Below, piece by piece: positions 2 through 49,792 of a stretch of 64,000 nt of DNA. A program made the translations under genes and the position numbers. The notes below the pieces were generated by a model that was given only the letters and a program-made list of their open reading frames with translations, was not told the origin of the DNA and did no database searches. This DNA comes from Kiritimatiellia bacterium (GTDB lineage: Bacteria > Verrucomicrobiota > Kiritimatiellia > RFP12 > UBA3636). The stretch lies in contig JAZNPC010000088.1 of the NCBI GenBank assembly GCA_045589455.1, positions 35,587 to 99,586 of the forward strand. Direction: 5' to 3'. The stretch's first letter is position 1. The number at the start of each line of letters is the position of its first letter.

Positions 2-376
2 TTCCGACAAAATGAATTATCCCATTTGATGGAAAATGTAATATATAATGAGCTACGGCGTCGTGGTTATTCTGTTGATGTAGGTATTGTAGAAAAGGTA
101 AGCACAATAAATAACAAAAAGGCTCGCACGTACTACGAAATAGATTTTATAGCTACTCGAGCAAACGAAAAAATTTATATACAATCTGCATTTAACATCC
201 CTGATAATGAAAAGAGAGAGCAGGAGACTAATTCTTTGCGTCAAATAAATGATGGATTTCGTAAAATAGTAATTACAGGTGATGCTTATGAAAAAACATG
301 GCGTGATGAGAATGGCATTATCTTTATGGGTATAAAGGCATTTCTTTTAAACACAAAGTCTTTGGATGTGCTATAG
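2..376 (+). CDS. C-terminal fragment of an AAA-family ATPase (DUF4143-like C-terminal domain); the 5' end lies beyond the window
   Basis: Open frame runs to position 2 with no upstream stop. The ORF track starts at a TTG at position 26. The residues ...GFRKIVITGDAYEK resemble the C-terminal domain of COG1373-type ATPases. Confidence 0.45.
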   Translation, partial: FRQNELSHLMENVIYNELRRRGYSVDVGIVEKVSTINNKKARTYYEIDFIATRANEKIYIQSAFNIPDNEKREQETNSLRQINDGFRKIVITGDAYEKTWRDENGIIFMGIKAFLLNTKSLDVL

Positions 377-475
377 CTCTTGCTTGCAATAGACAAGACA
401 AAGCTCATTCCACTAGTATTTTTTCTGCGTCATGTCTCTGCGTCCTCCGCGTCATTTGCGTCCCTTGTGTCCCTT

Positions 476-780: not shown

Positions 781-2064
781 ATGACATATTATCCACTATT
801 GAGAAAACACAACTTTGATTGGGATTTTATGAATAATTTTGACCAGATAATTTCAAGCATTGAAAAATATCTTTGGGGAAAGCTTTATTGCGAGAAAACC
901 AGTCTCTTTTACGATAGAATTTGTAAAGGAGACGACCGCTTTGCTGAGCTTCCCACACCAGAAGAAATTTCAAAGCAATTCCCCAATCCTTGCGGGTGGA
1001 GCACTGGCATGGAGGACTGCTCAATAAATGCTGGTCACATACTAGAAATTCTCTCCCTCCAACATACTGTTTCTTACGAAAATATTTCCACAAAAGCCGA
1101 ATGCGTAATCAAGGGGATACATTTATGCCAATCCGTGCATGGCAAGCTAGGATTCCTTGTTCGTGGTGTTTCCCCATTTGACAAAAAGAGCTGCTATTTC
1201 AATAGCTCACGCGATCAAATAACAATGGTTGTCGGAGGCTTATTTGACATCTACAATGGAGTACCAACCCTACCAGCCAATCAACAAGAGCAAATTAAGG
1301 AAATTCTATTCAACATTGCCACATATACAAAGCACACTGTAACAAAAGAAAACAATTATAGCTATCTAAGACTTGATGGAGGCAAAGCAGTTGTTTCTGA
1401 TTTATGGAATTGCGATGTACACGAAATGCTACGCCTCCCGATGATTTATGCAGTAGCAGGAGAAATCTGCAAATGCGAAGAGTTTTCTCTCCTTGCTTTG
1501 AGCTATATGGAAGAAGGATTAAAGGCATCTGAAGCATTCGATAAAGAAAAATACTTTTGGGATTTTCCTCTTGTGCAAATGCAGCTTTCTCTTCATATCC
1601 TTTTGCATTGCCCTACTCTCAAAGCATACCATAAGCGCATAGAAAAGCTTATGACGAATGTAGCATTTACAGCGAAGAGAGAATTTTTAAATGTATTAGA
1701 ACGCTGCGAAGCCTATACTGGCGATTGGAATGCGTATTGCAACAATTGGAGAACTTTACCTATGTATGTCACTCCAGCAACGATTGCCGAGAATCCGTAT
1801 AACACTGTCTTTGATGGCTATACCTATCTAAATCCTGCCTACAATAAGGATTTTGCAATTATTGTTGAGTATTTGCGTTCTATCGGTAATTATTTGGTAG
1901 CTACGATGCTTGCACCAGAAACAAGCCTTGACCAAGCAAACATAAATCGCCTTACAGGCTTTCTCTCTAAGCTTAATTTTTCAAAATGTACACACGCTGG
2001 TCCATTCTCGCTCTTACATGGTCTATTACTATTGTGTAAGAGCACACAAAAACAACAATCGTAA
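781..2064 (+). CDS. Hypothetical protein (427 aa)
   Basis: Long ORF with a coding-like composition. I recognise no confident family. Confidence 0.55.
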   Translation: MTYYPLLRKHNFDWDFMNNFDQIISSIEKYLWGKLYCEKTSLFYDRICKGDDRFAELPTPEEISKQFPNPCGWSTGMEDCSINAGHILEILSLQHTVSYENISTKAECVIKGIHLCQSVHGKLGFLVRGVSPFDKKSCYFNSSRDQITMVVGGLFDIYNGVPTLPANQQEQIKEILFNIATYTKHTVTKENNYSYLRLDGGKAVVSDLWNCDVHEMLRLPMIYAVAGEICKCEEFSLLALSYMEEGLKASEAFDKEKYFWDFPLVQMQLSLHILLHCPTLKAYHKRIEKLMTNVAFTAKREFLNVLERCEAYTGDWNAYCNNWRTLPMYVTPATIAENPYNTVFDGYTYLNPAYNKDFAIIVEYLRSIGNYLVATMLAPETSLDQANINRLTGFLSKLNFSKCTHAGPFSLLHGLLLLCKSTQKQQS

Positions 2065-2215: not shown

Positions 2216-3262
2216 TCACTTGAGCCTGAAATAGGTGGTATTTTTGCCGTTGCCCTCACGCACAAGCTCCCCCTCGGCAACGAGCTTCCGAAGTGCGCCT
2301 TCTACCGAGCTGATACTGAGGGACGGACAAAGCTCCATGACGTCCTGCTTCTTGAAGCGACCGACCTTATTCATCGTGGCGCGTCTCACCATTTCAAGAG
2401 AGGAAAGCTTGGTTTCCACAAGTGCAAAGCGGTCTTCAAAATCACGGTACGCGGAAAGGATTGTACCAAGCAGATATTTGATGAATGGTACGGTATCCGC
2501 TTCTCCCTCGTGCCAGCGTTGCTGCGACTGCCCCAGGGCATCGTAATACAGATCTTTGTTCTTTGCAATCTTGGCTTCCAAGGAGATATACTTCCCAACG
2601 TAGAATCCGTTTCGGTAAAGGAGGAGCATGGTGAGCAGACGGCTCATTCTGCCGTTGCCATCATTGAACGGATGGATGCAAAGAAAATCGTGTATAAAGG
2701 TAGGAATGGCAATGAGAGGCTCAAGCTCCATATTGCCGATCACACGGTTATATTCGTTACAAATGGCTTCAAGTGCCTCTGGTGTCTCAAAGGGGTCGAG
2801 AGGTGTAAACAGCGTTTCAGTATGTCCGTCGGGATAGGTTGCGCTGATATAATTCTGTACGCTCTTGGTTCTGCCCGCCACGGGATTGTTCATATGGCTG
2901 TAGAGGATCTTGTGAAGATGAAGGATATAGTTCGGTGTCAATGGGATGGCATCAAAGCTTTCGTGAATGATATTCAAAACGTCTCGGTACCCGGCAATCT
3001 CCTGCTCATCGCGGTTTCTCGGTGTGGTCTTCTCACCCATCAGCTGACGAATACGGGTGCTCGTGGTCACGATGCCCTCAATGGCGTTGGACGCTTCGGT
3101 GCTTTGTACCTTTGCAATCTCAACAAGCTTTTCAAGCTCATCAGGGCGTTGCTTCAAATATAATTCTTGTTTTCCGGCTTCCTTGTAAATTGCGGCAATC
3201 AAGCCGAGCAACTCGGAATCCCATTTGTTTTCACTGATTTTCGTGTAATTAAAGGTTCTCAT
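2216..3262 (-). CDS. fic: Fic family protein (AMPylation / Fido domain) with a C-terminal winged-helix domain
   Basis: Canonical HPFNDGNGRMSRLL Fic motif. The start was chosen at the internal ATG because it is preceded by GGAGGTGATAAAATG, a strong Shine-Dalgarno sequence. The ORF-track start at 3301 is probably too far upstream. Confidence 0.85.
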   Translation of the reverse strand: MRTFNYTKISENKWDSELLGLIAAIYKEAGKQELYLKQRPDELEKLVEIAKVQSTEASNAIEGIVTTSTRIRQLMGEKTTPRNRDEQEIAGYRDVLNIIHESFDAIPLTPNYILHLHKILYSHMNNPVAGRTKSVQNYISATYPDGHTETLFTPLDPFETPEALEAICNEYNRVIGNMELEPLIAIPTFIHDFLCIHPFNDGNGRMSRLLTMLLLYRNGFYVGKYISLEAKIAKNKDLYYDALGQSQQRWHEGEADTVPFIKYLLGTILSAYRDFEDRFALVETKLSSLEMVRRATMNKVGRFKKQDVMELCPSLSISSVEGALRKLVAEGELVREGNGKNTTYFRLK

Positions 3263-3279
3263 TTTATCACCTCCAAACA

Positions 3280-3425
3280 ATTCCCTTAAATTATAGCACA
3301 AATCAAGGGGATCGTCAACATCTCAAGGGAACATTCCCTTATTATTTTACTCAAATTAAGGGAATTTATTCATTATTGAGGGAATAATACGATAGTATCA
3401 TATTTTAGCGTTAAGGGGAATTCTC
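3280..3425. promoter_or_regulatory. Array of six or more TTAAGGG(G/A)AT-type motifs in the fic upstream region, including the palindrome gggaacattccc
   Basis: Copies are attcccttaaatt, caaggggat, tcaagggaacattccctta, aattaagggaattt, attgagggaat and gttaaggggaattc. Together with the downstream cluster, about 10 copies lie within 1.3 kb. Confidence 0.45.
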
Positions 3426-3584: not shown

Positions 3585-3715
3585 ATTTTTCAAAATGTAC
3601 ACACGCTGGTCCATTCTCGCTCTTACATGGTCTATTACTATTGTGTAAGAGCTCACAAAAACAACAATCGTAAAACTATTTTGCCCGCAAATTAAGTATG
3701 CGGGCAAAAAAATGG
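3585..3715. repeat. 131-bp direct repeat, copy 2; its last 3 nt overlap the CCA end of tRNA-Pro
   Basis: See copy 1. This copy carries the relic 3' end of an ORF, although no gene lies upstream of it. Confidence 0.85.
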
Positions 3716-3789
3716 TCGGAGAGGCGGGATTCGAACCCACGACAGCCAGTTCCCAAAACTGGTGCGCTACCAGACTGCGCTACTCTCCG
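3713..3789 (-). tRNA. tRNA-Pro (anticodon TGG)
   Basis: The reverse complement is CGGAGAGTAGCGCAGTCTGGTAGCGCACCAGTTTTGGGAACTGGCTGTCGTGGGTTCGAATCCCGCCTCTCCGACCA. It has a 7-bp acceptor stem, a TTTGGGA anticodon loop, a GTTCGAATC T-loop and an encoded CCA. Confidence 0.9.
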
Positions 3790-3958: not shown

Positions 3959-4993
3959 TTATAGCAAAATATCCCTTAATTGTGTTTGAAGTTCCTCTAA
4001 AGATGGCAATCCTAATCTATAAGTTGATATTCCTAACGGCTTATCAAAATCTGATAAAGAATATTCTGCAACTATATCATTTCGGGATTTACACAAAAGT
4101 ATTCCTATTGTTTTGCTATCTATCTCTGTTTTTACTTGCCTATCAATGGCTGTCATATAAAAACTTAATTGTCCTAAATCTTTTGGGTGAAATTTCCCTG
4201 TTTTTAATTCTATAACAATATAACGATGTAATACCACATGGTAAAAAAGAAGATCTATTTCAAACTCATCTCCACCAACCTTGAGTCGCCACCCCTTGCC
4301 CACATACGAAAACCCAGCACCAAGCTCTACCATAAACTGAGCAACTCTATCTACAAGCAATGTTCTTAGTCTATTTTCTGTTATGTTTCCGCTTGTAGGA
4401 AGAAAACCTAAATCATATTCTCCCCTTAATGCTTGATTCGCCATATCTAAATCCATAGGAGGCATAACATTTTTAAAATTATTTATTGCTTTACCTTGCT
4501 GTTTTGCTGCACAAAGTCCTATTTGATGCACCAAGACATTTCGAGACCACCCATTCTCTATGGATAATGCCGCGTAAGCTAGTCGATCTCCTCGCGATTT
4601 TAAATTCTCTAATAAGGCTATGTGATGATACCAAGGTAATTGTGCAAGTGGTGCTTGCACAATTTCATTCCGAGTCCAAGTCTCAGCAAAGCTACGCATA
4701 TATTTTAAATTGCGTGTCGACCAGCCACTCATATCAGGGAACACTTTTTTCAAATCGAATGACATTCGCTCTACAACCTTTGTACCCCACCCTTCTAAAT
4801 TCTGTTTCTCAATGATATCATTACCGATATCCCAATACAGCAATGTTAATTCAGAATTAACTAACATGCACGCTTTTATACGAGCAGATTGTATTCGTTT
4901 TTTGATTGAACAAATCCAAATATCGTACTCATCAGTTTTTAAAATTTCTTGAACAGAATTTTTATTAGTTTTTTTCATGCAACTCTCACACAT
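3959..4993 (-). CDS. YhcG / DUF1016-family predicted nuclease (PD-(D/E)xK restriction-endonuclease-like fold)
   Basis: Similar over its length to DUF1016 proteins (...LPWYHHIALL...GFSYVGKGWRLKVGGDEFEIDLLFYH...). A GAGGA Shine-Dalgarno precedes the ATG. Confidence 0.6.
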   Translation of the reverse strand: MCESCMKKTNKNSVQEILKTDEYDIWICSIKKRIQSARIKACMLVNSELTLLYWDIGNDIIEKQNLEGWGTKVVERMSFDLKKVFPDMSGWSTRNLKYMRSFAETWTRNEIVQAPLAQLPWYHHIALLENLKSRGDRLAYAALSIENGWSRNVLVHQIGLCAAKQQGKAINNFKNVMPPMDLDMANQALRGEYDLGFLPTSGNITENRLRTLLVDRVAQFMVELGAGFSYVGKGWRLKVGGDEFEIDLLFYHVVLHRYIVIELKTGKFHPKDLGQLSFYMTAIDRQVKTEIDSKTIGILLCKSRNDIVAEYSLSDFDKPLGISTYRLGLPSLEELQTQLRDILL

Positions 4994-5174
4994 TTATTCA
5001 TCCTCTATAAGCAAAACTAACTTACCATTTTAAGTAATCTACCTCATATTATATCATTTATTAAATAATAATCAAACAAATAAATTAAATAATAATTTAT
5101 TCTAGACGCATCTAAGTTATCTACACAACTAGAGTTCTAAATGTTGATTGCTAATTATTGTATTGTTCCCATTA

Positions 5175-5352
5175 CTCTCCATGCTCTAATTACTTTGCAA
5201 GCATACACACTTGCGCTTGGAAGTTGCCTTTGCGACAACGAGAGCATAAGAATGTAACGACAAGCGATAGTGTTTTTGCCGTCGCAACCACCAAACAAGC
5301 CATCACAAGAGCCCTGCGCCCCTGCAACCCCAGCATCTCCCTGACCTCCGTA
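5175..5352. repeat. Family B structured repeat, copy 1 (divergent)
   Basis: Shares cacacttgcgcttggaagttgc...ccatcaca.gagcc.tgcgccc...tccctgacctccgtag with 23583-23878 and 49793-50045. An internal stem differs from the other copies in a compensatory way (gcgac/gtcgc here, attattgc/gcaataat there). Confidence 0.7.
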
Positions 5353-5411
5353 GTTTTTTTTAAAAACGTAGGAGATTGTGGCCCTTTTCGCGCTTTCATA
5401 TCACACAAGAT

Positions 5412-6740
5412 TTACTTGTGGAATTGCTTTATTGATGCTAGGGATAGGATTAGGGCGATAACGCCACCCATGATTGGTAAAAGCTTTGGCAATACTGGGA
5501 AAAGCGCTGAAGCAAGACCACATGCGCCACCAAGAACTACGGCAGAAAGCCAAAGCTTCTGGTTTATTTTACCTTTATTGTAGGCAAATAATGCAACCGC
5601 TAATGGGATTGCTATGCCAGGCGTATAGATGCTATATGATAAAAGCAATAGCTCAATTATTCCATAATCTAAAAATGCAAGGAGCATCGCTACTATACCT
5701 ATTACAAATACAGAAGTACGGATAGAGCGGACACTGCCACAACCAAGAATATCGCGATCTACAATTACAGCACAATTGATTAGGCATGTATTAGCAGATG
5801 AAAGCAAAACTGAAATTAATCCAAGCGAGAAAAGAAGCTTTATTGGTAAAGGAAGCAATGTACTAATGTGAATTATTGGGTTATCCACTGACTTTGGATA
5901 ATTTGCAGCATCCCATAATCCCATATATGTAATTACAACTCCAAACACCAAAAGCGAAATTGCAGCAAGCACAGTGGCAAGCTTTGCCACTTTAGATGAA
6001 CGTGCAATGAAGCTACGCGAGACTATATCGGGGCCCAAAAAGAATGCACCACCCGCTGCAAACAGCATTAGTGCGAGCTCTTGCCAGCCAAATTTTGCAT
6101 TTAACAATTCGACTTGTGGCAGCGTGGTTGGTGCTTGTGAAGGCACTGGGACACTGCCACAAACTAAAGCAAATGCTGCTGCAGAAAATGCGGCAGCAAT
6201 TATAAGGGTTTGCAGCTTATCTGTGCGAACCACGGAGAGCTGTCCACCACACATGGTATAACACACTGTTATTGCACCGGCAATAACAACACCCCACTCA
6301 CGTGAAAGCGATGAAAGAGAAAACAATTTTATAAATTCATATCCAATGTAAAATTGTGCCACGACAATTCCTATCCAAGCAATCCCTATTATTGTTGCCA
6401 CTACTCTCTTTGCTTTGGGAGAAACTAATTTTTCCGCAAGCTCTGGGAGAGAGCAAGGCTTGAAAACCGCAATGCGTGAGGTAAGAAATGCGGCTTGAAG
6501 CACTAAGCCTATTGCCCCACAAATAAGCCACCACATTGCTGGCCAACCAATTTTTGTGGCAGACTCTGCCACGCCAAGGGTTGCCGATGCACCAAGCATC
6601 GTAGCCAACAATGACGCATAGACACCCCAGACGCCTTGGTTGCGTCCAGCAACCACAAAATCAAGTGTGGTTGGTTTACGCATTAGATCACGGATACAAA
6701 TGAATCCAAGAATGGCGATGTAGATGAATAATAGTGTCAT
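5412..6740 (-). CDS. Sodium:solute symporter family transporter
   Basis: Multi-TM protein with the VAGRN motif near the N-terminus, which is typical of the SSF family. Confidence 0.6.
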   Translation of the reverse strand: MTLLFIYIAILGFICIRDLMRKPTTLDFVVAGRNQGVWGVYASLLATMLGASATLGVAESATKIGWPAMWWLICGAIGLVLQAAFLTSRIAVFKPCSLPELAEKLVSPKAKRVVATIIGIAWIGIVVAQFYIGYEFIKLFSLSSLSREWGVVIAGAITVCYTMCGGQLSVVRTDKLQTLIIAAAFSAAAFALVCGSVPVPSQAPTTLPQVELLNAKFGWQELALMLFAAGGAFFLGPDIVSRSFIARSSKVAKLATVLAAISLLVFGVVITYMGLWDAANYPKSVDNPIIHISTLLPLPIKLLFSLGLISVLLSSANTCLINCAVIVDRDILGCGSVRSIRTSVFVIGIVAMLLAFLDYGIIELLLLSYSIYTPGIAIPLAVALFAYNKGKINQKLWLSAVVLGGACGLASALFPVLPKLLPIMGGVIALILSLASIKQFHK

Positions 6741-18445: not shown

Positions 18446-18884
18446 CTACATCGATACACAATAGAAATCAAACTATTAAAGTTTAAGTATGTAATTTCTA
18501 TTAGTTTAGCAAATGAAGTTGGTTTTTTCAAGTTATTTGTAACGTAAATACAGCTACTAAAAACAAAAAGAGCTATCTATTAAACATAAATTCGGAAGTG
18601 AAAAACTATTTATTATTATGAATCGGTTATTACTGTGGATTTATAAACAAATAGCTATTCACTCTTATGTGAAAGAAAAATCTATGTTTTTTTGAGAGTC
18701 AATCGAATAAGTTTTAGCACTTTTGCTAGCATTTGCATCACGCTTTCTTGCTCAAAAACCTTGATGGACAGTACACACTCATCACACAAGCATCCCGACC
18801 ACCCGAGCTTCCTCAGGCGGGTGCCAGCGTCGGCCTAGCCATTACGCTAGAAACATAAAATCAAACTACATAATTTATGTTAAC

Positions 18885-23458: not shown

Positions 23459-23582
23459 TCTTTCTTGGGCAGCGGGTTATAATCCCGCTTTTTTTGTTTT
23501 TAGGCCACAAATCATATGTGCTAAACTCTTAAGACGAATGCTAATAAACCACAATCATAGAATTTGTTGATTGTTGTATTGT

Positions 23583-23878
23583 TTCCTCGCTCCTCGTCTC
23601 AAAAGTCTTGGTGGGTCGTACACATTAGCGCTTGGAAGTTGCATTATTGCTTCGTCAGATTTCGCAATAATAAAGGCAACAACAAGCGGTAATGTGCGCA
23701 TTCGCGCCCCAACACCACACCCATCACACAAGCCCAGCGCCCTCCGCGTCCTTCCTGACCTCCGTAGCCTTGGAGTAGGAGGTTGCGTCCCATCGGCGTC
23801 ACGCTAGCTCGGCGTTCTCTGCGTCTCTGCGTGAGGCGTGAGCCTGCCAATTATTTGTTGGCTGTTGTTTGTTGGCTG
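23583..23878. repeat. Family B structured repeat, copy 2
   Basis: Shares ...gtacacattagcgcttggaagttgcattattgcttcg.cagatttcgcaataat.aaggcaacaacaagcggtaatgtgcgcattcgcgcccc... with 49793-50045, and continues to the tandem ctctgcgt units. Confidence 0.8.
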
Positions 23879-23890
23879 TTGTATCCTTAA

Positions 23891-26885: not shown

Positions 26886-27050
26886 AATAATCCCAGCACC
26901 CCTCCGTGTCTCCGAGCCTCCAGAAAACCACACTACGTGTGCTCCGTGTTTCGCCGAAGGCTAGATGCTCAAGGAGGCAAAGGTTAGCACCTTGCCACCT
27001 TTCGCCCCAGCAACACCGGGCGACAGAGCCACCCTCAAATGGGATAAAGC
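26886..27050. repeat. Family A partial unit fused to a family D hairpin element
   Basis: ...ccctccgtgtctccgagcctccagaaaaccacactacgtgtgctccgtgtttcgccgaaggct followed by ...ggcaaaggttagcaccttgccacct.tcgccccagcaacaccgggcgacagagccaccctcaaatgggataaagc. Confidence 0.8.
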
Positions 27051-27555
27051 CTTCTGGAGATTCCTCTAATTCGTCATCAGGATACTCCACTTTAAATGCA
27101 AATACATCACCATTCGCATCCTTAGCAAATGCATATTGACCTTTAGCTTATGCATCAACTCTGTCACATAACTCTACCCTTGCATTTTTATAAATGCGGA
27201 TATAACTCATTAGGGCTGGTGAAGAGCATATTTGATATCATATTGCACGCCAAATTCAATTTAAATCTGAGGAAAAACACCCCAACACCGACACATTAAA
27301 ATAAACCCTCTTATTCAGTTGTTCGTAATTGATTGCTGTATTGTTTTTCATCAATAATTAATTTATAATATCTATCAAACAAGTGAACCTACCATCAAAA
27401 ATTATTAAAATAGACCACCTAGTAATTTTATGAAAATAATAACTGCAATGGACTTCTTTAAAGAGTGCATGACTTCTGTTGATGTTAGTAATGCAGTAAA
27501 AACTGGTCCTATTGCAAAAACAGTCTCATTATCATAAAGGACATTTTGTTATACC

Positions 27556-29612: not shown

Positions 29613-29649
29613 CCTTCCCATTCTCCTAATCTCCTAATCTCCCAATTAG

Positions 29650-30236
29650 CGCCACAGGCTTGAGCGGGAGCGTTTAAATCCCTTTCGTTCATTGCTTACG
29701 CTTAACACGGAGTACGGAGGACAAAGGAGAATTGTATTAGCAATCTTTCCAGCACCCCAGAACCCTCCCCGTGTCTCCGTTCTCCAGAAAACCACACTAC
29801 GTGTGCTCCGCGTTTCGCCGAAGGCCTGAGCGGGAGCGTTTAAATCGTTTCACTCATTGCTTTCGCTCAACACGGAGCACGGAGGACAAAGGAGAATTGT
29901 GCTAATCGTTGCACTCGTTGCCTACGCCTAGGAAAGGAGGGGAAGTGCAAGCAACAATAATCCTAGAACACTCTCCGTGTCTCCGTTCTCTTAATCCTCC
30001 GTGTTTCGCCGAAGGCTCAAGCGGGAGCGTTTAAATCACTTTCGTTCATTGCTTACGCTCAACACGGAGTACGGAGGACAAAGGAGAGTTGTGCTAGCAA
30101 CCATTATAATACCCCCAACAAACTCTCCGTGCCTCCGTTCTCTTTTATCTTCGCGTTTCGCCGAAGGCTCAAGCGAGAGCGATTAAATCATTTCACTTGT
30201 TGCTTACGCTTAACACGGAGGCTGGGGAGAACGGAG
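29650..30236. repeat. Family A structured repeat, tandem array of 4 degenerate units (152-191 bp period)
   Basis: Core starts (cgtgtttcgccgaagg) fall at about 29645 (truncated), 29812, 30003 and 30155. Each unit ends ...aacacggag.acggaggacaaaggagaattgtgcta.caa. Confidence 0.85.
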
Positions 30237-30291
30237 ACGCGGAGAGGTTTGGGAAGATATTGGAGAAAGGGGCTACAGCCCTTTGCGTGCT

Positions 30292-30344
30292 GACAATATG
30301 ACAGTTTGACAATATGACAGTTTGACAATATGACAGTTTGACAG
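30292..30344. repeat. Tandem repeat (gacaatatgacagttt) x3.3
   Basis: Perfect 16-bp units. A related 9-bp repeat (gacagtatg) lies at 30466-30500, and aactgtcaaactttccaa occurs twice at 30372-30425. Confidence 0.9.
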
Positions 30345-30504
30345 AGCAGATGAGGGTGGCTTTGCCGCCCTAGACCCCCAACTGTCAAACTTTCCAACTC
30401 GCCCACTCGCAAACTGTCAAACTTTCCAAGCCTCAACACCTAAACAGTTCCATTTTTTTATAGTTTGACAGTATGATAGTATGACAGTATGACAGTTTGA
30501 GAGA

Positions 30505-30578
30505 GAAGATGAAGGTGGCTCTGCCACCTCTCGCCCCAGCAACACCGGGCGACAAAGCCACCCTCAAATGGGATAAAG
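30505..30578. repeat. Family D hairpin element, directly 3' of the PEP-CTERM gene
   Basis: ggtggctctgccacctctcgccccagcaacaccgggcgacaaagccaccctcaaatgggataaagc. On the minus-strand transcript it folds into a 12-bp stem (with G-U pairs) and a ~20-nt loop. Confidence 0.75.
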
Positions 30579-30583
30579 CTTAC

Positions 30584-31237
30584 TTACTTTCTGCGTTTTA
30601 TCAATAATGCTGCACCAGCAAGAGCAAGCAACGCGGAACTTGGTTCAGGAACAACACCAACGGTTATTGGATCGCCATCAAGATTTATTGCTGAATTAAG
30701 CATAGTAACACCGTCTGTTGTGAATTGCATATGAAGCCACCCGTAAACATCTCTATACCAGAAAGGTTCATCAACACTATTACTAAAACCTGCCTCGTAA
30801 ACAAATCCCAAATAGAAATCATCACCAACGTTACCTGTTATGCTGTATCCTGGATATGCACTCCCATCTGCAGTAGTAAGATATTCAAGGAAATATTCAT
30901 CTTGATTTTTAGTCGTTGCCGCTGAAACAATATCTCCCTCATTAAGTTGGACGAAATTACAAGCATGCGCAAGCAGTTGTTCACTGGAAGCAGAAATTGT
31001 TCGCTTATTCCCATATTTTGGAATTTCTACTTCGATATACGCCGCTGGAGCGACACAAATTGAATAATACCCCGCATAGTTATATAAATCATCAAACCTA
31101 GTCTTTGGTAAAATTTGATAGTTATCAATTAAATAGTGGTGATCAATTATAGTCATATAATCCCATAATACTGTTGAAGCAAAAGTATACGAGCAAATTA
31201 GTGACAACAAAATTATTATTGAGCTTTTAATTTTCAT
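30584..31237 (-). CDS. PEP-CTERM sorting-domain protein (secreted/cell-surface, exosortase substrate)
   Basis: N-terminal signal peptide, and a C-terminus ...VVPEPSSALLALAGAALLIKRRK made up of a PEP motif, a hydrophobic helix and a basic cluster. Confidence 0.8.
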   Translation of the reverse strand: MKIKSSIIILLSLICSYTFASTVLWDYMTIIDHHYLIDNYQILPKTRFDDLYNYAGYYSICVAPAAYIEVEIPKYGNKRTISASSEQLLAHACNFVQLNEGDIVSAATTKNQDEYFLEYLTTADGSAYPGYSITGNVGDDFYLGFVYEAGFSNSVDEPFWYRDVYGWLHMQFTTDGVTMLNSAINLDGDPITVGVVPEPSSALLALAGAALLIKRRK

Positions 31238-31565
31238 TTACGTATCTCACTAAAACCAGCTTCCGCAACCAAATCTGTTAAGTCTTGCATTAAATCATTA
31301 ATTGTTATTGAAAAACACGTTCTAATCTATGAACAGCAACGTTTTCTTCATATCATAATCCTTTTTGATACTTCTCAATTTAAGATTAACAAAATATGTT
31401 ATTCTATTCAACTATTATTGTTGGTGTGAAACTGTAATTTGCAAAAGTAAATGCACCTCTTTTGGTGCATTTAGTCACACAATGGTGTATTTAGTTTTGC
31501 AATCTACAAAAAGTCACTTTTCCACACCCTTTCTCCCTCTAGCAGCAAATCTTTTTTGTTCGACG

Positions 31566-31685
31566 CTTCCGCCTAACACGGAGACGCAGAGGCGCGGAGA
31601 ATTGTGCAAGCAATCATTACAACTACCCCAGAACCTCTCCGTGTCTCCTTACCTCTTTATCCTCCGTGTTTCGCCGAAGGCAAGA
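31566..31685. repeat. Family A structured repeat, single unit
   Basis: gcctaacacggagacgcagaggcgcggagaattgtgcaagcaatcattacaactaccccagaacctctccgtgtctcc...cctccgtgtttcgccgaagg. Confidence 0.8.
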
Positions 31686-31810
31686 GCACTAGCGACCATC
31701 AGTTCTCTGCGTTCCTTTTTCGCACTTTTGAAGCGTGCTGGTGCACGCAAAGCGACTGGAAGTCGCTTCTCCATACTTTTCTAGCCCACGAATGTGATGC
31801 ACTATAATAA

Positions 31811-35729: not shown

Positions 35730-37316
35730 TTATGCTTCCACTGGAGATTCTTCTGCGGCTGGTGCTTCTGCTTCTACAGGAGCATCCGGTGCCTCTTCAA
35801 CTACTGGGGATTCCTCAACAGCTGGTGCCTCTTCTACAGCTGGTGCTTCTTCCGCCACAGGTGCTTTTGCTGGAGCATCTGCAGTAAGGGTTAGCTTATC
35901 CTTTGTAGGAGTTTGAAGCTTGCGATATTTTGGATGTGGCTCAGGCAATGCTAGAACCTCATTATGATACTCAATAACATGACCACGCTCTGTTACCCAA
36001 TTTAGTTGAGAAATAATCTTCTTTGCATCCTCTGCTGATGTACCTTCTGGTACAAGTGCAGCTATTAGCTCACTACGTGTGCAGCAAGGATTTTGTGTAA
36101 TATAATCAATTACTGCCTTTAGTTCTGGCACCGCATGAGTGACGTCAAGAACCTGTGGCTGCTTGCGAACTACAAATTCATCCTTGTGCTCAGAAGCAAT
36201 CTTAAAGATAACGAGCTTACGGCTCTTCAAGCCACCACGTACTGCAAAGAATAGTGTTCCAAGATGATTATGGCGTTCCTTATCCCATGCATGCAATACA
36301 CCGCGTGGCATAAAGCCGTGTGGTAATGCACGGATTACTGGTAGAGAAGCAATCACATAGCGGTTTCTATTTAGATTGCGAGCAACTACCTCGTCCATAA
36401 AATATTTGTCAGCTTCCTCAAAGGTCATCTGAGCACGAGCTACGAGCTCTTCTGCAGTTGCCTTTGCATCAAGCTTTAGAAGATAACGCATTTGCTTACT
36501 TGCCTGCTGCTTCCACTCATCTACAGCTGCTGGATCACGCACTAATTCAATCTCTGCACGGAACTGCTCTTCTGTAACCTCTGGGCATTCTGTCTCGCGC
36601 ATCTTACGAACTGCTGCATTGTAGCTATGGTGATTTGGAGGAGCAATTAGCTTTCCTGTTAGCTTTGAGCGAGCAACAGAAGGGAAATTTCCTGTTGGAG
36701 GCTCAACATCAATTTCAATTGACTCAAAGCACTCTTCAAAATGAGCCTGCTTAATGTGAGCAATTGTTTCCTGTTCATCACATGAGAACCAACCGCACTT
36801 CTTACACTGATAGAAACGCTTATCCTTATGCTCTTCCTTAAATTCTAGGCGAGCAAGCACAGCATTTTGATTTTCAATAAATAGCTTTACAATGCTCTTA
36901 AGAGGCATTGCCTTGTGGTTGCTGTGAATCTTACGAGTAATTACTGTAAGAGCATTTGCCTCTGGCAAGAAACGAATCTCAAAAGGAAGCTCTCTAGGCT
37001 CACGAGGAGGACGATTCTTAAAGTCATGCTTTTCAAACCTTCTATCCTTGCGTGGTTGGGCATTATCAGAGGAGTCACTACCCTCTTTATTTGCCTTATT
37101 AAAATCACGCTTTTGAAAATCTGGCTTGTCTCCGCGAGGACGCTTATCACCACGGAATTTTTTATCGTTACGATCACCATAGGATGCCTGCTTTTCAGCA
37201 TACTTAGAAATATCTGATAAGTGCTGATCAGGGGATGTTTTTGCCCATGATGTTGACATTGAAAAACCATCTAGAAGAGCATCTAGATTGTTTTGTTGTT
37301 TATCGCTATCGCTCAT
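35730..37316 (-). CDS. Hypothetical protein (528 aa) with a C2H2-like zinc knuckle and disordered basic N-terminus / acidic AEP-repeat C-terminus
   Basis: YQCKKCGWFSCDEQETIAHIKQAH, an N-terminal K/R/D-rich low-complexity stretch and C-terminal (A/P)VEE(A/S)P repeats. It lies 53 bp upstream of fucI, is co-directional with it, and is probably in the same operon. Confidence 0.55.
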   Translation of the reverse strand: MSDSDKQQNNLDALLDGFSMSTSWAKTSPDQHLSDISKYAEKQASYGDRNDKKFRGDKRPRGDKPDFQKRDFNKANKEGSDSSDNAQPRKDRRFEKHDFKNRPPREPRELPFEIRFLPEANALTVITRKIHSNHKAMPLKSIVKLFIENQNAVLARLEFKEEHKDKRFYQCKKCGWFSCDEQETIAHIKQAHFEECFESIEIDVEPPTGNFPSVARSKLTGKLIAPPNHHSYNAAVRKMRETECPEVTEEQFRAEIELVRDPAAVDEWKQQASKQMRYLLKLDAKATAEELVARAQMTFEEADKYFMDEVVARNLNRNRYVIASLPVIRALPHGFMPRGVLHAWDKERHNHLGTLFFAVRGGLKSRKLVIFKIASEHKDEFVVRKQPQVLDVTHAVPELKAVIDYITQNPCCTRSELIAALVPEGTSAEDAKKIISQLNWVTERGHVIEYHNEVLALPEPHPKYRKLQTPTKDKLTLTADAPAKAPVAEEAPAVEEAPAVEESPVVEEAPDAPVEAEAPAAEESPVEA

Positions 37317-42266: not shown

Positions 42267-42586
42267 ACTTCTACCTCCGACACGTCAATTTTCCCGGACA
42301 TTAGCTTCAGCAACAGTGTGTCTTGTAGCTTACATAGAGTGCGATTTTCCAATGTATTCAGATCGATTTTTTTGCTTATAGAATTAAGTATCGATACAAT
42401 CTTTGATTGTTCATCAAGCGAAGTTAGTGGAATTTCTATTGTTTTGAGAAAACAGGAAGGTTGAGCAATTGATGGAACATCACTTTTCACAAAGGTAGAC
42501 TTCTTTATATTTGAACCCAATAGTCCCATTGCTATTTTTTCTGCGACATCTCCAACAGTTACTTTTTTCCACTCACTCATTCTCAT
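42263..42586 (-). pseudogene. hsdS: Fragment of a type I restriction-modification specificity subunit (HsdS)
   Basis: ...IPLTSLDEQSKIVSILNSI... is the conserved HsdS inter-domain helix motif. At 107 aa it is about a quarter of a full HsdS, and there is no hsdM or hsdR nearby. Confidence 0.6.
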
Positions 42587-43248
42587 CCCCTCTCTTTCAG
42601 AATAATCGCAGCTTTTTTTATTTTTTGCATCAAGTTCTGATTTCCTTGTTTAGCAAGTTCACGATAGACATCGCGTAACAAGGAAAGCACCTCTTCCGTT
42701 TGCTGTGCTCGGTATGATTTGCGAGCTTGGTACATTCGTTCCCGGATGCCTCCTTTTTCTGTGAAACTTTTTTCCAGTGACTTGATTTGACGGTCAAGCA
42801 AATAATTGGTCTGGTGAATCAGGGAAATCATCGTATTGCAGAAAAGCTCAGGATTATCAGCAGAAAAATAAGACTTATAGGTCTCATAAGTCCTATTCTT
42901 TTGTCTTGCAAGCTGGCGGATTTGCAAAGCCCGTGGGTCATCTTTTTCCCACAAAGGCAAATTGTGCGTCCGCAAATAATCGCGGTAGTCTTCCAATAAT
43001 TCTTCAAGACTGGCTCTGGCAACACCAACAAGCTTAATTTCTGTTCCGCTACTGATACCTGATGCCATGCTTCCTTCGATTATATTTTGCTTACCGCTTC
43101 TTGCCGCCTGTATCATTTGATCAATTGTCCGATCACCTTTTCTAAGAAAATTTTGACAAAAACTCTGCGTCGCATCAAAAATAATGACACTATTTTGATA
43201 CGATTCAAGTTCCTGATAATTTCCGTGTGGCAAGACAATTTCTGCCAT
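42583..43248 (-). CDS. Four-helix-bundle (23S rRNA intervening-sequence protein family) domain protein with a C-terminal extension
   Basis: ...QMIQAARSGKQNIIEGSMASG...VGVARASLEELLEDY... fits the Q..RSA.SI..NIAEG...IARGS..EL signature. Confidence 0.45.
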   Translation of the reverse strand: MAEIVLPHGNYQELESYQNSVIIFDATQSFCQNFLRKGDRTIDQMIQAARSGKQNIIEGSMASGISSGTEIKLVGVARASLEELLEDYRDYLRTHNLPLWEKDDPRALQIRQLARQKNRTYETYKSYFSADNPELFCNTMISLIHQTNYLLDRQIKSLEKSFTEKGGIRERMYQARKSYRAQQTEEVLSLLRDVYRELAKQGNQNLMQKIKKAAIILKERG

Positions 43249-43289: not shown

Positions 43290-43500
43290 TTCATTTCCCT
43301 CACTCATTTTCAGAGGTCCCTTCCTTTCAGAAAATTCGCATCTTCAGAAAGATAAGACTTATAGGTCTCATAAGTCCTATTCTTTTGTCTTGCAAGCTGG
43401 CGGATTTGCAAAGCCCGTGGGTCTTCTTTTTCCCACAAAGGCAAATTGTGCGTCCGCAAATAATCACGGTAGTCTTCCAATAATTCTTCTAGACAAAGAG
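43290..43500 (-). pseudogene. Internally deleted duplicate of the preceding four-helix-bundle gene
   Basis: 43345-43495 is ~97% identical to 42867-43030, and 43290-43340 resembles 42575-42620. It corresponds to ORF-track ORF 43310..43525. Confidence 0.7.
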
Positions 43501-43549: not shown

Positions 43550-46549
43550 TTACGCTTCTACTGATGGCTCAGCGGCTGGTGCTTCTGCTGCAGGTGGCTC
43601 AGCTGTGGCAGGGTCTGAAGTAGGTGCTTGCTCAGCGGCGGCACCATTCTTTTCCTCTGCAAGTGCCTTTTGAAGGCGCTCCATTTCTTGAGCTGTTTCC
43701 GCAGAGATAATTGTACCAGAAGATACTGCATCTTCCTTATCCACGCGGACAACTCTTACACCCATTGTGTTACGGTTGCTGATTGAAACATTGCGTACAT
43801 ATGTCATCAGTGATGTGCCACCACGTGTCATCAATAGAACTGCTGCACCCTTAGCTGCTGATTGCTCTTCCGACTCAACGCCTTCTGCTGTGGCAGGGTC
43901 TGCACCCTCTACTGGCTGCTCTGGCTCATCCTGTGGCAAGCACTCAACTAGCGCAGCAAATACAACCTTACCATTACGTGCTGTGGTCTTGATATCGATA
44001 ACACCCTTACCACCACGATTCTTTGTTGGGTAGCTTGCAACTGGTGTGCGCTTTCCATAACCATTATCTACGATTGTTACTAGATATAGATTATCCTCTG
44101 AGCCTGCTGGAACCTTAACCATTGTGCGGAGCTCATCAACAATTAGCTTGCCATTTTCATCAAGCTCAACTGCACTCTCCTCCTCTTCTCCAGCAGCAGG
44201 TGCATCATCTGGATCAGGGTCCTTGAAGGTAACTCCGTCAAGGCGAATACCACGTACACCATGTGCTGTGCGTCCCATTTTGCGGGCTGCTGTTGCGGCA
44301 AACTTAATGCACTTACCATTTGCTGAAATAAGCATAATCTTATCATTATCTTCAACAAGTGTTACTGCTATTAGCTCATCATCCTCATCAATAGAGATAG
44401 CATTTATGCCGGAGCTACGAACATTCTTGTACTCGCTCAATAATGTACGCTTAACAACGCCCTTCTTTGTTGCAAAGAATACATATTGTTTATCCAGCTG
44501 CTCTTGCTCATCCTTTTCAAAGCTCTTCACTGCGATAATATCAAGCACGCGCTCTGCTGGGCGATATGGTAGCTCCTTGCCATCCTTATCCTTTGTGCCT
44601 TCTAGGCGCTCAGGACGCAGATCAATGAAGTTCTGAACTGGCTTACCCATTGTGTTGCAATCGCTCTCTTGTAGCTCATAAGCACCCTTTTGGAATAGGC
44701 GACCATGTGAGGTAAAGAACAATAGCTCATCGTGTGCCATGCAGTTATAAACATTTAGGATATAATCCTCAGGTGCTTTGTCCGCGCCCTTACGTAGCTT
44801 TGCACCAGTCTTACCTGTTCCACCGCGATTCTGAATTCTAAAGTCAGCAAGTGGTGTACGCTTAATGTAACCAAGCTTACTAATTGAAATTACAGATGGG
44901 ATATTTGGTACATAGTCCTTAACAGCAAAGCCGCTTCCTACATTGCTATTCTTGTCAATTTTTGTAAGACGAGCATCGCCATCCTTTGAAGATTTTGCAA
45001 ACTTTGCTTTCATCTCCTCACAGTCGTTCTTAATAATATCAAGAACCTTCTGTGGATCAGCAAGAATATCCTTTAGCTCTTGGATACGAACTAGAAGCTT
45101 CTGATATTCATCCTCGACACGCTCACGAGCCAAGCCAGTAAGCTGACGAAGCTTCATTTCAAGAATTGAATTAGACTGTATTTCATCTAAACCAAAGCGC
45201 TCAAAGAATATCTTGCGGACCTCTGCATCATCATGAGAAGCACGGATAATGCGAACAATCTCATCCATATTATCGATTGCAATACGATAGCCCTCAAGAA
45301 TGTGAGCGCGCTCTTGTGCCTTACGTAGCTCATATTTGCAGCGGCGTGTGATAACCTCCTTGCGGTGCTCCACAAAGCAATGAAGTAGCTGCTTAAGATT
45401 CATCACCTTTGGACGGCCATGATCTAGAGCAAGCATAATTGCGCTAAAGCTTGATTGAAGAGGTGTTCTGCTGTAGAAGAAATTCATAATTGCTTCTGGC
45501 ACAGCATCACTCTTTAGCTCAATTTCAATGCGAATATCCTCGCGTGAAACATCGCGAATTTCCTTTACGCCTTCAAGAACCTTGTTTTCCTTATCACGTG
45601 CAAGCTCGCCCATCTTTTCAACCATGAGAGCTTTATTTACACCATAAGGAACGCTATCGATAACAATAATCTTATCGCCTGAGGTCTGCTTACCCTTCTT
45701 CTTTTCCTCAATCGTATAATTACCACGGATGTACATTGTTCCGCGGCCCTTCTTATACATATCAATAATCCCCTTTACACCACAAATTGTTCCGCGGGTT
45801 GGGAAGTCTGGGCCCTGGATATGCTGCATCAAATCATCAATTGTGCAGAATGGATGATCGATTAGAAGCTTAATAGCATCGCATACCTCAGTAAGGTTAT
45901 GTGTTGGGATATTTGTAGACATACCAACTGCGATACCCATTGAACCATTCAATAGAAGGTTTGGTAGCTTTGAAGGAAGTACCGTTGGTTCCTCGAGTGT
46001 TTCATCGTAGTTAGGAACCATATCAACGGTTTCCTTATCGATATCCTCAAGCATCTCTTCTGCGTATTCACGCATGCGAACCTCGGTGTAACGCATAGCT
46101 GCAGCGCCATCACCATCGATAGAACCAAAGTTGCCATGTCCATCAACTAGCATATAACGCATGGAGAAATCCTGCGCCATACGAACGATTGTCTCGTAAA
46201 TTGCGCTATCACCATGAGGGTGATACTTACCCATAACATCACCGACAATACGAGCAGCCTTACGGTGTGGCTTGTCATGATAGTTACCTGTCTCACCCAT
46301 TGAATAAATACATCTACGATGCACTGGCTTCATACCATCACGTGCATCTGGCAATGCACGGCCAACGATAACTGACATTGAGTAGTCGATGTAAGCATTT
46401 TTCATCTCCTCCTCAATTTTGATATCGTTTAAGCCTGGCTCAAAAGAAGCAGCCACACCATCATCTGCAGTATCCTGAGACACCTCAAGATTCGCCTCCT
46501 CAAGAGCCGCATCTACAATCTTATTCTCTTCGTTAATCTCGTTATCCAT
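43550..46549 (-). CDS. gyrA: DNA gyrase subunit A, with ~45-aa N-terminal and Ala/Glu/Pro-rich C-terminal extensions
   Basis: ...YSMSVIVGRALPDARDGMKPVHRR... active-site region and C-terminal beta-pinwheel repeats. Total length 999 aa. Confidence 0.95.
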   Translation of the reverse strand: MDNEINEENKIVDAALEEANLEVSQDTADDGVAASFEPGLNDIKIEEEMKNAYIDYSMSVIVGRALPDARDGMKPVHRRCIYSMGETGNYHDKPHRKAARIVGDVMGKYHPHGDSAIYETIVRMAQDFSMRYMLVDGHGNFGSIDGDGAAAMRYTEVRMREYAEEMLEDIDKETVDMVPNYDETLEEPTVLPSKLPNLLLNGSMGIAVGMSTNIPTHNLTEVCDAIKLLIDHPFCTIDDLMQHIQGPDFPTRGTICGVKGIIDMYKKGRGTMYIRGNYTIEEKKKGKQTSGDKIIVIDSVPYGVNKALMVEKMGELARDKENKVLEGVKEIRDVSREDIRIEIELKSDAVPEAIMNFFYSRTPLQSSFSAIMLALDHGRPKVMNLKQLLHCFVEHRKEVITRRCKYELRKAQERAHILEGYRIAIDNMDEIVRIIRASHDDAEVRKIFFERFGLDEIQSNSILEMKLRQLTGLARERVEDEYQKLLVRIQELKDILADPQKVLDIIKNDCEEMKAKFAKSSKDGDARLTKIDKNSNVGSGFAVKDYVPNIPSVISISKLGYIKRTPLADFRIQNRGGTGKTGAKLRKGADKAPEDYILNVYNCMAHDELLFFTSHGRLFQKGAYELQESDCNTMGKPVQNFIDLRPERLEGTKDKDGKELPYRPAERVLDIIAVKSFEKDEQEQLDKQYVFFATKKGVVKRTLLSEYKNVRSSGINAISIDEDDELIAVTLVEDNDKIMLISANGKCIKFAATAARKMGRTAHGVRGIRLDGVTFKDPDPDDAPAAGEEEESAVELDENGKLIVDELRTMVKVPAGSEDNLYLVTIVDNGYGKRTPVASYPTKNRGGKGVIDIKTTARNGKVVFAALVECLPQDEPEQPVEGADPATAEGVESEEQSAAKGAAVLLMTRGGTSLMTYVRNVSISNRNTMGVRVVRVDKEDAVSSGTIISAETAQEMERLQKALAEEKNGAAAEQAPTSDPATAEPPAAEAPAAEPSVEA

Positions 46550-49339: not shown

Positions 49340-49620
49340 AAAATTTCGCGTGCGCGTCAATATATTTTCACGCGCGCGCGAGATTTTTTGTGGTAGCGAG
49401 TATGGTGGGGATTGGCGTGCTGGGCACGCGAGTGCGCTCTATTTTGGCGCGAGTGCGCTCTCGCGCAGGAACAGGATTGGCAGGATTTTGCAGGATTGCT
49501 TGGGTGTGTGCATAGCGCACTACACTAGCGCTTGACGTTGGACATGGTCTTGCTCTCGTTGTCGCAAGGCCAACTTACAAGCGCTAGTGTGGGGGCAACC
49601 CATGTTACTTGCGTGATGCA
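49340..49620. other. GC-rich (~57% against a 40% background) repeat-laden non-coding island upstream of gyrB
   Basis: Contains (CG)n-type palindromes cgcgtgcgcg / cacgcgcgcgcg, the direct repeat gcgagtgcgctct x2, gcaggatt x2, and a long inverted repeat gcgcactacactagcgcttg...caagcgctagtgtggggg that resembles the family B core. Confidence 0.6.
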
Positions 49621-49624
49621 CCTG

Positions 49625-49745
49625 ACGTAAAAGGGACGATTAGACGTTAGACTCCGCGACCTGCAGGCGTTGACACGCCCCTTTGGACATGAGACATGAG
49701 ACGTGGGACACGAGACAAGGTCGTGAGACCAAAAGACATTTAGAC
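49625..49745. repeat. Family C repeat, copy 2 (inverted relative to copy 1 at 31885-32055)
   Basis: Its reverse complement reads gtcttttggtctcacgaccttgtctcgtgtcccacgtctcatgtctcatgtccaaaggggcgtgtcaacgcctgcaggtcgcggagtctaacgtctaatcg. Confidence 0.8.
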
Positions 49746-49792
49746 GTTAAGAACCAATTGTTGGTTGTTGGATCGTTTCCCATCACGCTTCC

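Follow-up and report, generated by a model that had tools for sequence, protein, structure and literature searches.

Is a conserved and apparently structured intergenic sequence a novel non-coding RNA (ncRNA) gene, or a repeat that has spread between genes? This question is raised by family B, an element at positions 23,583-23,878 of a 64,000-nt stretch of DNA from a Kiritimatiellia bacterium (contig JAZNPC010000088.1, positions 35,587-99,586; this whole stretch is called the window). The initial annotation had described three intergenic plus-strand copies and regarded them as candidates for a structured ncRNA of about 150-250 nt with a covarying stem. Our analysis indicates that family B is probably a dispersed, insertion-polymorphic mosaic repeat and not a dedicated ncRNA gene. 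It forms a repeat family of modular build; its units are present or absent at orthologous sites, the hairpin at their core shows structural covariation, and their orientation is biased.

All three plus-strand copies were recovered by sequence alignment where they had been reported. Copy 2 (23560-23890) and copy 3 (49758-50056) are 81% identical over 315 nt (E 2e-69), and copy 2 and copy 1 (5148-5353) are 67% identical over 218 nt (E 7e-15). The common box CCATCACA..AGC.C.G.GCCC occurs exactly three times, with no occurrence expected. A second motif, tccctgacctccgtag, had also been ascribed to all three copies and was found in copies 1 and 2 only, to which CCTGACCTCCGTAG is likewise confined. 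The covariance-model search proposed as a check was performed with a model of the hairpin, without filters, across the window. It returned exactly four hairpins (5206-5273, 23621-23695 and 49819-49893 on the plus strand, 49522-49591 on the minus strand), with scores of 72-75 bits on the correct strand compared to 21-38 bits on the opposite one. The fourth hairpin, scoring 73.9 bits on the minus and 34.6 bits on the plus strand, belongs to one of two partial echoes noticed earlier. Both echoes are real: the one at 49.5 kb contains a complete reversed hairpin, and the one at 18.7 kb is a hairpin-less fusion of leader and trailer. The family B sequences of the window are the following:

388-464, plus strand: truncated 3' half of a hairpin of the 77-nt subfamily (..AAAGCTCATTCCACTAGTA), followed by a T-run and an octamer array
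5148-5381, plus strand: copy 1, 68-nt subfamily, with a decayed hairpin at 5206-5273 and the trailer box at 5300-5321
5340-5353 and 5346-5374, plus strand: 3' parts of copy 1, namely CCTGACCTCCGTAG and an imperfect palindrome
18735-18815, plus strand: hairpin-less derivative, the leader (..gtaCACAC) joined straight to the trailer TCATCACACAAGC
23506-23885, plus strand: copy 2, a composite block of ~380 nt between the terminator of tRNA-Leu(caa) and the stop codon of a GHL10-like gene
49391-49650, minus strand: reversed unit of the 70-nt subfamily, with its hairpin at 49522-49591
49754-50059, plus strand: copy 3, with left heptamers at 49754-49771, leader, hairpin at 49819-49893 and trailer box at 49919-49940
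49944-49966, 49993-50016 and 50038-50059, plus strand: arrays of copy 3, the first two of octamers, the third the right heptamer array

Related loci were located by scanning one genome per GTDB species with the outer-arm pattern of the hairpin, which matched at least 64 stretches. At least 45 of these are from the metagenome-assembled genome (MAG) 'Kiritimatiellae bacterium RGIG4692' (roe deer rectum), at least two from RGIG990, a MAG from cattle rectum, and at least one from a Verrucomicrobia-labelled MAG. The remaining 16 of the 64 listed stretches, from other phyla, are unrelated sequences whose arms show no mutual similarity. We compared the window to ~320 kb of RGIG4692 and RGIG990 loci, which are numbered with L labels (e.g. 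L060), as are contigs of further relatives and strains; among the latter, L069, L070 and L071 derive from the ruminant hindgut metagenome runs SRR32209720, SRR24653883 and SRR24653815, respectively. In aligned gene regions, the window is 95-98% identical to both genomes and therefore comes from a close relative, and the proteins flanking the repeats carry Kiritimatiellae labels. About 50 distinct hairpins were counted in these ~320 kb. Many of them are located at the ends of short contigs (e.g. L008, L024, L046, L063) because repeats break short-read assemblies, and such contig ends explain the fragmented MAGs of this lineage. No family member was found in IMG/VR viral contigs, and a specific pattern gave no match in JGI metagenome contigs. 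Family B looks restricted to one lineage of ruminant-gut Kiritimatiellae.

Orthologous sites in close relatives differ in whether they carry a unit. From the tRNA-Leu terminator to the stop codon of the GHL10-like gene, the distance is ~45 nt in RGIG4692 (L060) compared to ~400 nt in the window; this difference corresponds to the entire copy 2 block (23506-23885), and the flanking genes are 95-98% identical. Likewise, the spacer between gyrB and the gene for an M16 peptidase comprises 259 nt in the relative L069 (peptidase 92% identical) and 877 nt in the window, with both sides aligning. Two features define this site:

49391-50053, no strand assigned: repeat block between the divergent gyrB and M16-peptidase promoters, absent in L069; it consists of the reversed 70-nt unit, other modules and copy 3
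50054-50082, plus strand: promoter-like site of the M16-peptidase gene, TTGATT-17-TATAAT, where relatives read TTGACT-17-TATAAT

The last unit of the right heptamer array of copy 3 is continuous with the -35 hexamer of this promoter. A third case is found downstream of upp, the UPRTase gene. Here, the window and the same-species contigs L070, L072 and L073 (99.6% identical) carry a hairpin-less unit, whereas strain L071 has a full unit of the copy 2 type in the opposite orientation, directly after the stop codon; its UPRTase protein is identical to that of the window, at 91% DNA identity. Finally, the window at 388-720 and RGIG990 (L040) share an identical junction, after which the repeats differ, L040 having a 76-nt hairpin. 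At the loci compared between close strains, units of family B account for much of the intergenic difference, promoters included. They are found just downstream of stop codons, behind terminators and in the space that separates divergent promoters.

The core of each unit is one long imperfect hairpin of 68-77 nt with three tiers: an outer stem of 13-14 bp (CACAyTAGCGCTTG / CAAGCGsTArTGT), a middle stem (GTTGCC(T) / (A)GGCAAC) and a variable inner stem-loop. Covariation was analyzed in an alignment of 20 sequences representing all subfamilies, with shuffled alignments and slid partners as controls. Of all alignment cells at the 25 pairs, 91% can pair. Changes on both sides occur in 9 of the 25 pairs, compared to a mean of 3.9 +/- 1.3 in shuffles, none of which (0/500) reached 9, and the covariation score is 0.171 versus 0.076. 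With the partner slid by one to three columns, at most five pairs show changes on both sides and at most 55% of the cells pair. Compensatory changes include C5-G to T-A and A4-T to G-C, and an otherwise conserved G.G mismatch became G-C in two subfamilies. Between subfamilies, GTTGC/GCAAC is replaced by GTTGG/CCAAC, GTTTC/GAAAC or TTTGC/GCAAA, and the proximal outer stem CGCTTG/CAAGCG by GGATGAG/CTCATTCC. Within the 68-nt subfamily, only 0.7% of the cells at paired positions are off consensus, compared to 8.0% at unpaired ones (positions fixed by the search pattern excluded). The aligned sequences are related copies, and many of their loop variants are lineage markers held in common. Judged from these alignments, the hairpin is the selected part of the unit; subfamilies diverge in sequence but keep the pairing.

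Folded as single-stranded DNA (ssDNA), copy 2, copy 3 and the 49.5-kb unit have hairpin energies of -21 to -23 kcal/mol (z -6.5 to -7.7; copy 2: -22.8 kcal/mol, z -7.7). The copy 1 hairpin is decayed (-11.9 kcal/mol, z -2.8), with two middle-stem pairs broken compared to the family consensus. As RNA, the fold is stable on either strand (means of -32 and -29 kcal/mol), and 14 G.T versus 16 A.C mispairs give no strand-specific G.U signal. Applied to 36 units comprising leader, hairpin and trailer, RNAalifold supported the hairpin only and not the proposed unit of 150-250 nt. A helix closing leader onto trailer, as seen in a single-sequence fold, was not supported by this alignment.

These results also modify the covariation that had first been proposed. 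The stem attattgc/gcaataat is real in copies 2 and 3. Its supposed counterpart in copy 1, which would pair gcgac (5233-5237) with gtcgc (5282-5286), occupies a non-homologous position: the gtcgc arm falls beyond the hairpin (5206-5273), and pairing with it would cut across the outer stem. Moreover, the corresponding slot reads TTGC/GCAA in the 25 RGIG4692 copies of this subfamily, in which gtcgc is not conserved. The idea of a helix kept by compensatory change holds between subfamilies, but not for the copy 1 stem on which it had been based.

At least five subfamilies can be separated by hairpin length:

68-nt subfamily: copy 1 type; 25 distinct copies in RGIG4692 after removal of repeats from overlapping loci
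70-nt subfamily: type of the 49.5-kb unit, with a perfect outer palindrome
75/76-nt subfamily: type of copies 2 and 3
77-nt subfamily: found incidentally, at L029:177-253, L035:6059-6134, L034:3452-3528 and L032:4486-4562
a single divergent copy at L040:66

They follow a common plan. A variable module (TTCGCACTTYTAG or a heptamer array of TTGTTGA, TTCTTCA or TATTCAC) is followed by CCAYCACG, a leader of ~40 nt (..GCTCCGCGTCTYTGCCTTCTTGTGGKCGWA) and the hairpin. Next come the trailer TATCACAGAAC, at least one CCACCACGCAAGCC box and (CTCYGCGWC)n arrays; the trailer boxes include CCAYCACRCAAGCC, and a second 7-mer array is often present. The sequence CC-TTYTTCGCAC.. at the end of a unit restarts the plan. 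Short direct-repeat arrays (TTGTTGA, CTCTGCGTC, TTCTTCA, TATTCAC) flank the hairpin in all subfamilies, and their copy numbers vary between orthologues. Directly 3' of the hairpin, copies 2 and 3 have GCGCATTC and copy 1 has TTTTG. Modules are also found alone, repeated, inverted or deleted, and L001 holds hairpin-less units. Copy 2 illustrates this build:

23506-23558, plus strand: left module (CACAAATCATATGTGCTAAACTCTTAAGAC..AATAAACCACAATCAT), 53 nt, itself a dispersed repeat
23564-23583, plus strand: left heptamer array, 2.6 units of TTGTTGW (Tandem Repeats Finder)
23584-23620, plus strand: leader (..ctcaaaagtcttggtgggtcgta), homologous in all subfamilies in the 36-unit alignment
23621-23695, plus strand: three-tier hairpin of 75 nt, the conserved core (covariance model, 73.9 bits)
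23696-23742, plus strand: trailer, with the mini-palindrome GCGCATTCGCGC (23696-23707) and the conserved box CCATCACACAAGCCCAGCGCCC (23721-23742), from the unit alignment
23754-23783, plus strand: small second hairpin ACCTCC..GGAGGT, which includes CCTGACCTCCGTAG
23816-23832, plus strand: octamer array, 2.1 units of CTCTGCGT, homologous to the (CTCYGCGWC)n arrays of RGIG4692
23854-23882, plus strand: right heptamer/14-mer array, 2.1 units of TTTGTTGGCTGTTG, in direct orientation relative to the left array

Copies of the left module with 88-91% identity occur in L071, L023 and L006, in either orientation, and a heptamer array comparable to that of copy 2 is present on the 5' side of copies 1 and 3. 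The tandem ctctgcgt octamers pointed out earlier were seen at 23816-23832 and 49993-50016. Units that are 84-91% identical to the reversed 49.5-kb unit were found in L004, L014, L021, L023, L025 and L029.

The units show an orientation bias. Among 38 copies of the 68-, 75- and 76-nt subfamilies, 30 run antisense to the strand that carries most of the coding sequence at their locus (p 0.0005), and 28 are on the C-rich strand (p 0.005). The plus strand is the C-rich one along the whole window, and the minus strand encodes most of the genes; it is because of this bias that all three window copies are found on the plus strand. Both orientations are in use, and a crude call of open reading frames (ORFs) placed 16 copies between tandem, four between divergent and two between convergent genes. 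All copies lie outside of long ORFs, apart from spurious ones that span repeats. Two such ORFs, at 5158-5583 over copy 1 and at 49793-50050 over copy 3, are artefacts produced by GC-rich repeats that contain few stop codons, and the multi-copy 'ORFs' of the related loci are the repeats themselves. The right end of copy 2 adjoins the stop codon of the GHL10-like gene, and copy 1 follows a gene encoding an SSF transporter.

Family B is best read as a new, lineage-restricted family of REPIN/BOX/MITE-like repeats that need their hairpin to spread, and the data fit a family that is selfish or at least dispensable at any single site. In such a scenario, units and modules would be gained, lost, inverted, truncated and nested at 'safe' intergenic sites. 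The hairpin, probably as folded ssDNA, would serve as the cis-acting structure for copying or insertion by an enzyme acting in trans; it is selected most likely because the folded form is needed for one of these steps. Read-through transcription from neighboring genes would also yield a stable RNA stem-loop as a by-product. We infer both the mechanism of mobilization and the identity of the enzyme by analogy to REP/REPIN-RAYT (PMC3116915, PMC3733652) and IS200/IS605-type systems, and a step that proceeds through an ssDNA hairpin appears possible rather than probable. The orientation bias is expected for strand-specific, replication-coupled mobilization of ssDNA. The initial annotation had named the terminal repeat of a larger mobile element as the alternative to its own proposal, which comes close to our result.

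A number of observations weigh against this reading. No transposase or recombinase gene was found beside any copy in the window or the ~320 kb of related loci. Neither a target-site duplication nor fixed ends can be defined, since module boundaries shift between copies and since, at the two junctions with a filled and an empty counterpart, the sequence is too diverged and the blocks are too composite for a duplication to be read. At one site (L014/L025), the two species-level genomes RGIG4692 and RGIG990 have a 70-nt unit in common. This unit has diverged to much the same extent as the sequence around it (96.5%), and its inner stem is disrupted in L025. The 77-nt subfamily resembles a unit of promoter and terminator, with a (TTCTTCA)n array plus a TTATAAT box upstream in three of four copies and 5-7 T directly 3' of the hairpin in all four. 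Because most coding sequence lies on the G-rich strand in 43 of 46 loci, skew and gene direction are confounded, and the orientation bias could reflect selection on transcripts. Moreover, the covariation counts rest on related sequences and on an alignment of our own choice, and in the first alignment the outer-stem positions contained in the search pattern are invariant by construction.

The search for a mobilizing enzyme comprised ORF clustering, Pfam analysis of 19 ORFs from the window and the related loci, and tblastn with sequences of the IS200 TnpA and the E. coli RAYT. The one weak tblastn match to these queries falls into an ORF of 392 aa which, on visual inspection, looks like aroA (EPSP synthase). 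An autonomous insertion sequence (IS) with the same ends was not found in the window or the ~320 kb of related loci, and the viral and JGI contigs gave no match to family B. In RGIG4692, positions 1-1100 of L054 contain an AT-rich islet of ~600 nt with a gene for a PDDEXK_3 nuclease (387-782), bracketed by inverted family B units at 33-107 (minus strand) and 924-999 (plus strand). As a partner of family B, this GxxExxY/PDDEXK_3 gene was rejected, being a single case with no homologue near other copies. A second PD-(D/E)XK gene seen beside a unit is the YhcG/DUF1016 PDDEXK nuclease gene of the window (3959-4993), which begins 213 nt from copy 1; a link between the two is probably absent.

Although family B is undescribed, the kind of element is well known. 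REP sequences and REPINs are mobilized by tyrosine (HUH) transposases known as RAYTs (Bertels & Rainey 2011, PMC3116915; Di Nocera et al. 2013, PMC3733652). A REP is defined as a palindrome of 20-40 bp that carries, at one of its ends, an unpaired GTAG or CGTC tag (PMC3733652). Like REPINs, family B consists of high-copy extragenic repeats (~50 copies in the related loci) whose replicative unit is an imperfect hairpin of two inverted arms and a spacer, predicted to form in ssDNA or mRNA. Both share the presence of several subfamilies per genome, clustered copies, vertical inheritance and restriction to a lineage. In contrast to REPs, the hairpin is 68-77 nt long and has three tiers, its arms are not palindromes of 20-40 bp, and the unpaired tag is missing: GTAG occurs only within the 3' arm (CGGTAGTGT) of three subfamilies, and the 70-nt and 77-nt subfamilies have GCTAG. 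The arms of ~24 nt are inverted repeats around a variable center, as in REPINs, yet they are not self-palindromic REPs. Also unlike REPINs, family B has a long non-palindromic leader and trailer as well as tandem-array modules, and no RAYT was found in the window or the ~320 kb of related loci.

The BOX elements of Streptococcus pneumoniae are built as boxA-boxB(n)-boxC (Croucher et al. 2011, PMC3049150). Like them, family B is a modular intergenic repeat in which internal modules vary in number and secondary structure is extensive. BOX elements are, moreover, judged to be parasitic and not specialized for the host, are insertion-polymorphic between strains, have no known transposase of their own and likely affect co-transcribed genes. 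The two differ in phylum and module set, here a hairpin core with arrays of 7-9-mers, and share no sequence relationship.

Mosaic arrays of short modules in intergenic DNA also connect family B to the Correia elements and NIMEs of Neisseria and the BIMEs of E. coli. Correia elements have terminal inverted repeats (TIRs) of 26 bp, duplicate a TA target and can contribute promoter boxes from their ends; dRS3 repeats delimit NIMEs, and BIMEs are composed of REPs and linker motifs. None of these hallmarks (26-bp TIRs, TA duplication, dRS3, REPs) was found in family B. PATEs, which derive from IS200/IS605 elements, depend on hairpins, have neither TIRs nor target duplications, and are oriented relative to the replication strand. 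Family B would likewise rely on a hairpin and not on TIRs. PATEs have distinct subterminal hairpins at the left and right ends and a conserved target tetra- or pentanucleotide, whereas family B has a single central hairpin and no definable target motif. As to a replication-strand bias, 28 of 38 family B copies are on the C-rich strand, but GC skew coincides with gene direction in 43 of 46 loci, which confounds replication with transcription. With MITEs, family B shares the presence/absence polymorphism among related genomes; it differs from them in that copies 2 and 3 end in direct heptamer arrays and only the outer stem of the hairpin is inverted. No sequence kinship was detected to any described repeat family that could be compared. 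A full-text literature search for repeats in Kiritimatiellota returned nothing relevant, and within that scope this is the first repeat family of its type found for the phylum.

A bolder proposal is that the hairpin units are substrates of an unrecognized, strand-specific and replication-coupled system of ssDNA mobilization in Kiritimatiellota that is distinct from REP-RAYT, and that some subfamilies (77-nt type) are self-contained mobile transcription units. We consider this a long shot. If true, the family would move promoters, -35 boxes and terminators, thereby rewiring expression between strains. Should a mobilizing enzyme be identified, family B would provide a non-proteobacterial test case for the persistence of hairpin repeats and for structural selection.

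Three other explanations of the units were weighed. The one that survives best is that they act in cis as RNA elements within transcripts of neighboring genes, mostly in the form complementary to the strand read here, and would stabilize mRNA 3' ends, terminate transcription or insulate genes. Host selection would then maintain the units, with spread by recombination being secondary; such cis-acting RNA roles have been discussed for REP and BOX elements (PMC3733652, PMC3049150). Several copies are indeed located a few to tens of nucleotides from a stop codon (copy 2, copy 1, the L071 unit), and the orientation bias relative to gene direction (30/38), the much lower variability of stems compared to loops, the stable RNA fold on either strand and the T-run of the 77-nt subfamily would all be in agreement with such a function. 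But positions downstream of genes or between convergent ones are not enriched, copy 3 is placed between divergent promoters, and a G.U/A.C asymmetry is absent on either strand. The window copies lack a T-run except for a weak one in copy 1, orthologous loci of close relatives function without the element and single copies decay. We therefore regard a cis-acting RNA role as unlikely.

The proposal of the initial annotation, stand-alone sRNA genes of 150-250 nt on the plus strand whose products act in trans or structurally, fared worse. The helix does covary, relative to shuffles, the fold of the full copy 2 region is stronger on the plus strand (z -3.2) than on the minus strand (z -1.4), and the array, TATA-like box and T-run of the 77-nt subfamily look like gene signals. 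A scan of the window, however, detected no promoter-like or terminator-like site belonging to copies 1, 2 or 3. Rfam at the gathering score recognized tRNAs only; a permissive search added a generic hairpin match of 23 bits to mir-4423 (gathering score 78). Furthermore, the consensus structure is restricted to the hairpin, the multiple copies occur in both orientations and in truncated and hairpin-less versions, their boundaries and module content vary from copy to copy, and copies 2 and 3 are missing at orthologous sites. For the window copies, the case for discrete sRNA genes is weak, and we consider them very improbable, though less so for the 77-nt subfamily. Identifying family B as a repeat guards against annotating a mobile repeat as a novel ncRNA gene.

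A role as protein-binding DNA architecture is also very improbable. Here, the 7-9-mer arrays and the hairpin or cruciform would be bound by a nucleoid protein, by gyrase or by some regulator, comparable to BIMEs, or would provide mobile parts of promoters, and would be retained for chromosome organization or gene regulation. In its favor, direct-repeat arrays flank the hairpin in all subfamilies and the right heptamers of copy 3 run into the -35 box of the M16-peptidase gene. Against it, each subfamily has array sequences of its own, the number of array units varies freely, and the promoters in question have neither the blocks nor an obvious replacement in relatives. No candidate binding protein is known, and the promoter overlap is one case, with a -35 box one base off the ancestral sequence.

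Three further candidates were rejected. Intrinsic terminators, in which a T-run immediately follows a GC-rich hairpin, do not apply, as there is no terminator at the hairpins of copies 1-3 and this feature is found only in the 77-nt subfamily. Integron attC sites carry the core sites R''/R' (RYYYAAC / GTTRRRY) at the foot of the hairpin and form cassette arrays in one orientation. In family B, GTTGCCT/AGGCAAC is off this consensus and located in the middle stem, and copies are dispersed in both orientations and are not preceded by cassette ORFs. A derivation from tRNA was ruled out on sequence grounds.

The window contains other repeats in addition to family B. A second hairpin family, unrelated to family B (CTCCGTGTTTCGCCGAAGGC...AACACGGAG, then TACGGAGGACAAAGGAGAATTGTGC..CAACAACCA), is located at 487-710, 29641-30247, 31560-31700 and 51689-51806. 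It is partly tandem, with four units at 29.6-30.2 kb, and abundant in the RGIG4692 loci, too. A dispersed module (TGCCACCTYTCGCCCCAGCAACACCGGGCG..) occurs at 26993-27055, 30522-30584 and 51909-51971, and tandem arrays of the 16-mer AGTTTGACAATATGAC at 30303-30369 and 30462-30528. Repeat islands make up ~5 kb of the window by rough estimate, and their local GC content is raised to ~0.48-0.53. Beside the 70-nt unit shared by L014 (4600-4990) and L025, a 31-nt tandem array (aactggggtgcaagccttttagtcttacactt) has ~7 copies in RGIG4692 and one in RGIG990.

A direct repeat of ~130 nt (~97% identical; 1978-2106 and 3587-3715) brackets a gene of the Fic/DOC family (2216-3301, GC 0.48), and its end coincides with the 3' end of tRNA-Pro (3713-3789, minus strand); this region looks like a small inserted islet beside the tRNA gene. 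A 140-nt repeat (98% identical; 42872-43010 and 43356-43494, 484 nt apart) lies in or near the 5' region of the gene at 42583-43248 and in the spacer before a gene encoding 999 aa. Short in-frame repeats of the CTGGTGCTTCTGC type (35741-35882 and 43558-43615) lie inside the minus-strand ORFs 35730-37316 and 43550-46549, and their sequence suggests low-complexity linkers rich in Ala, Pro and Glu.

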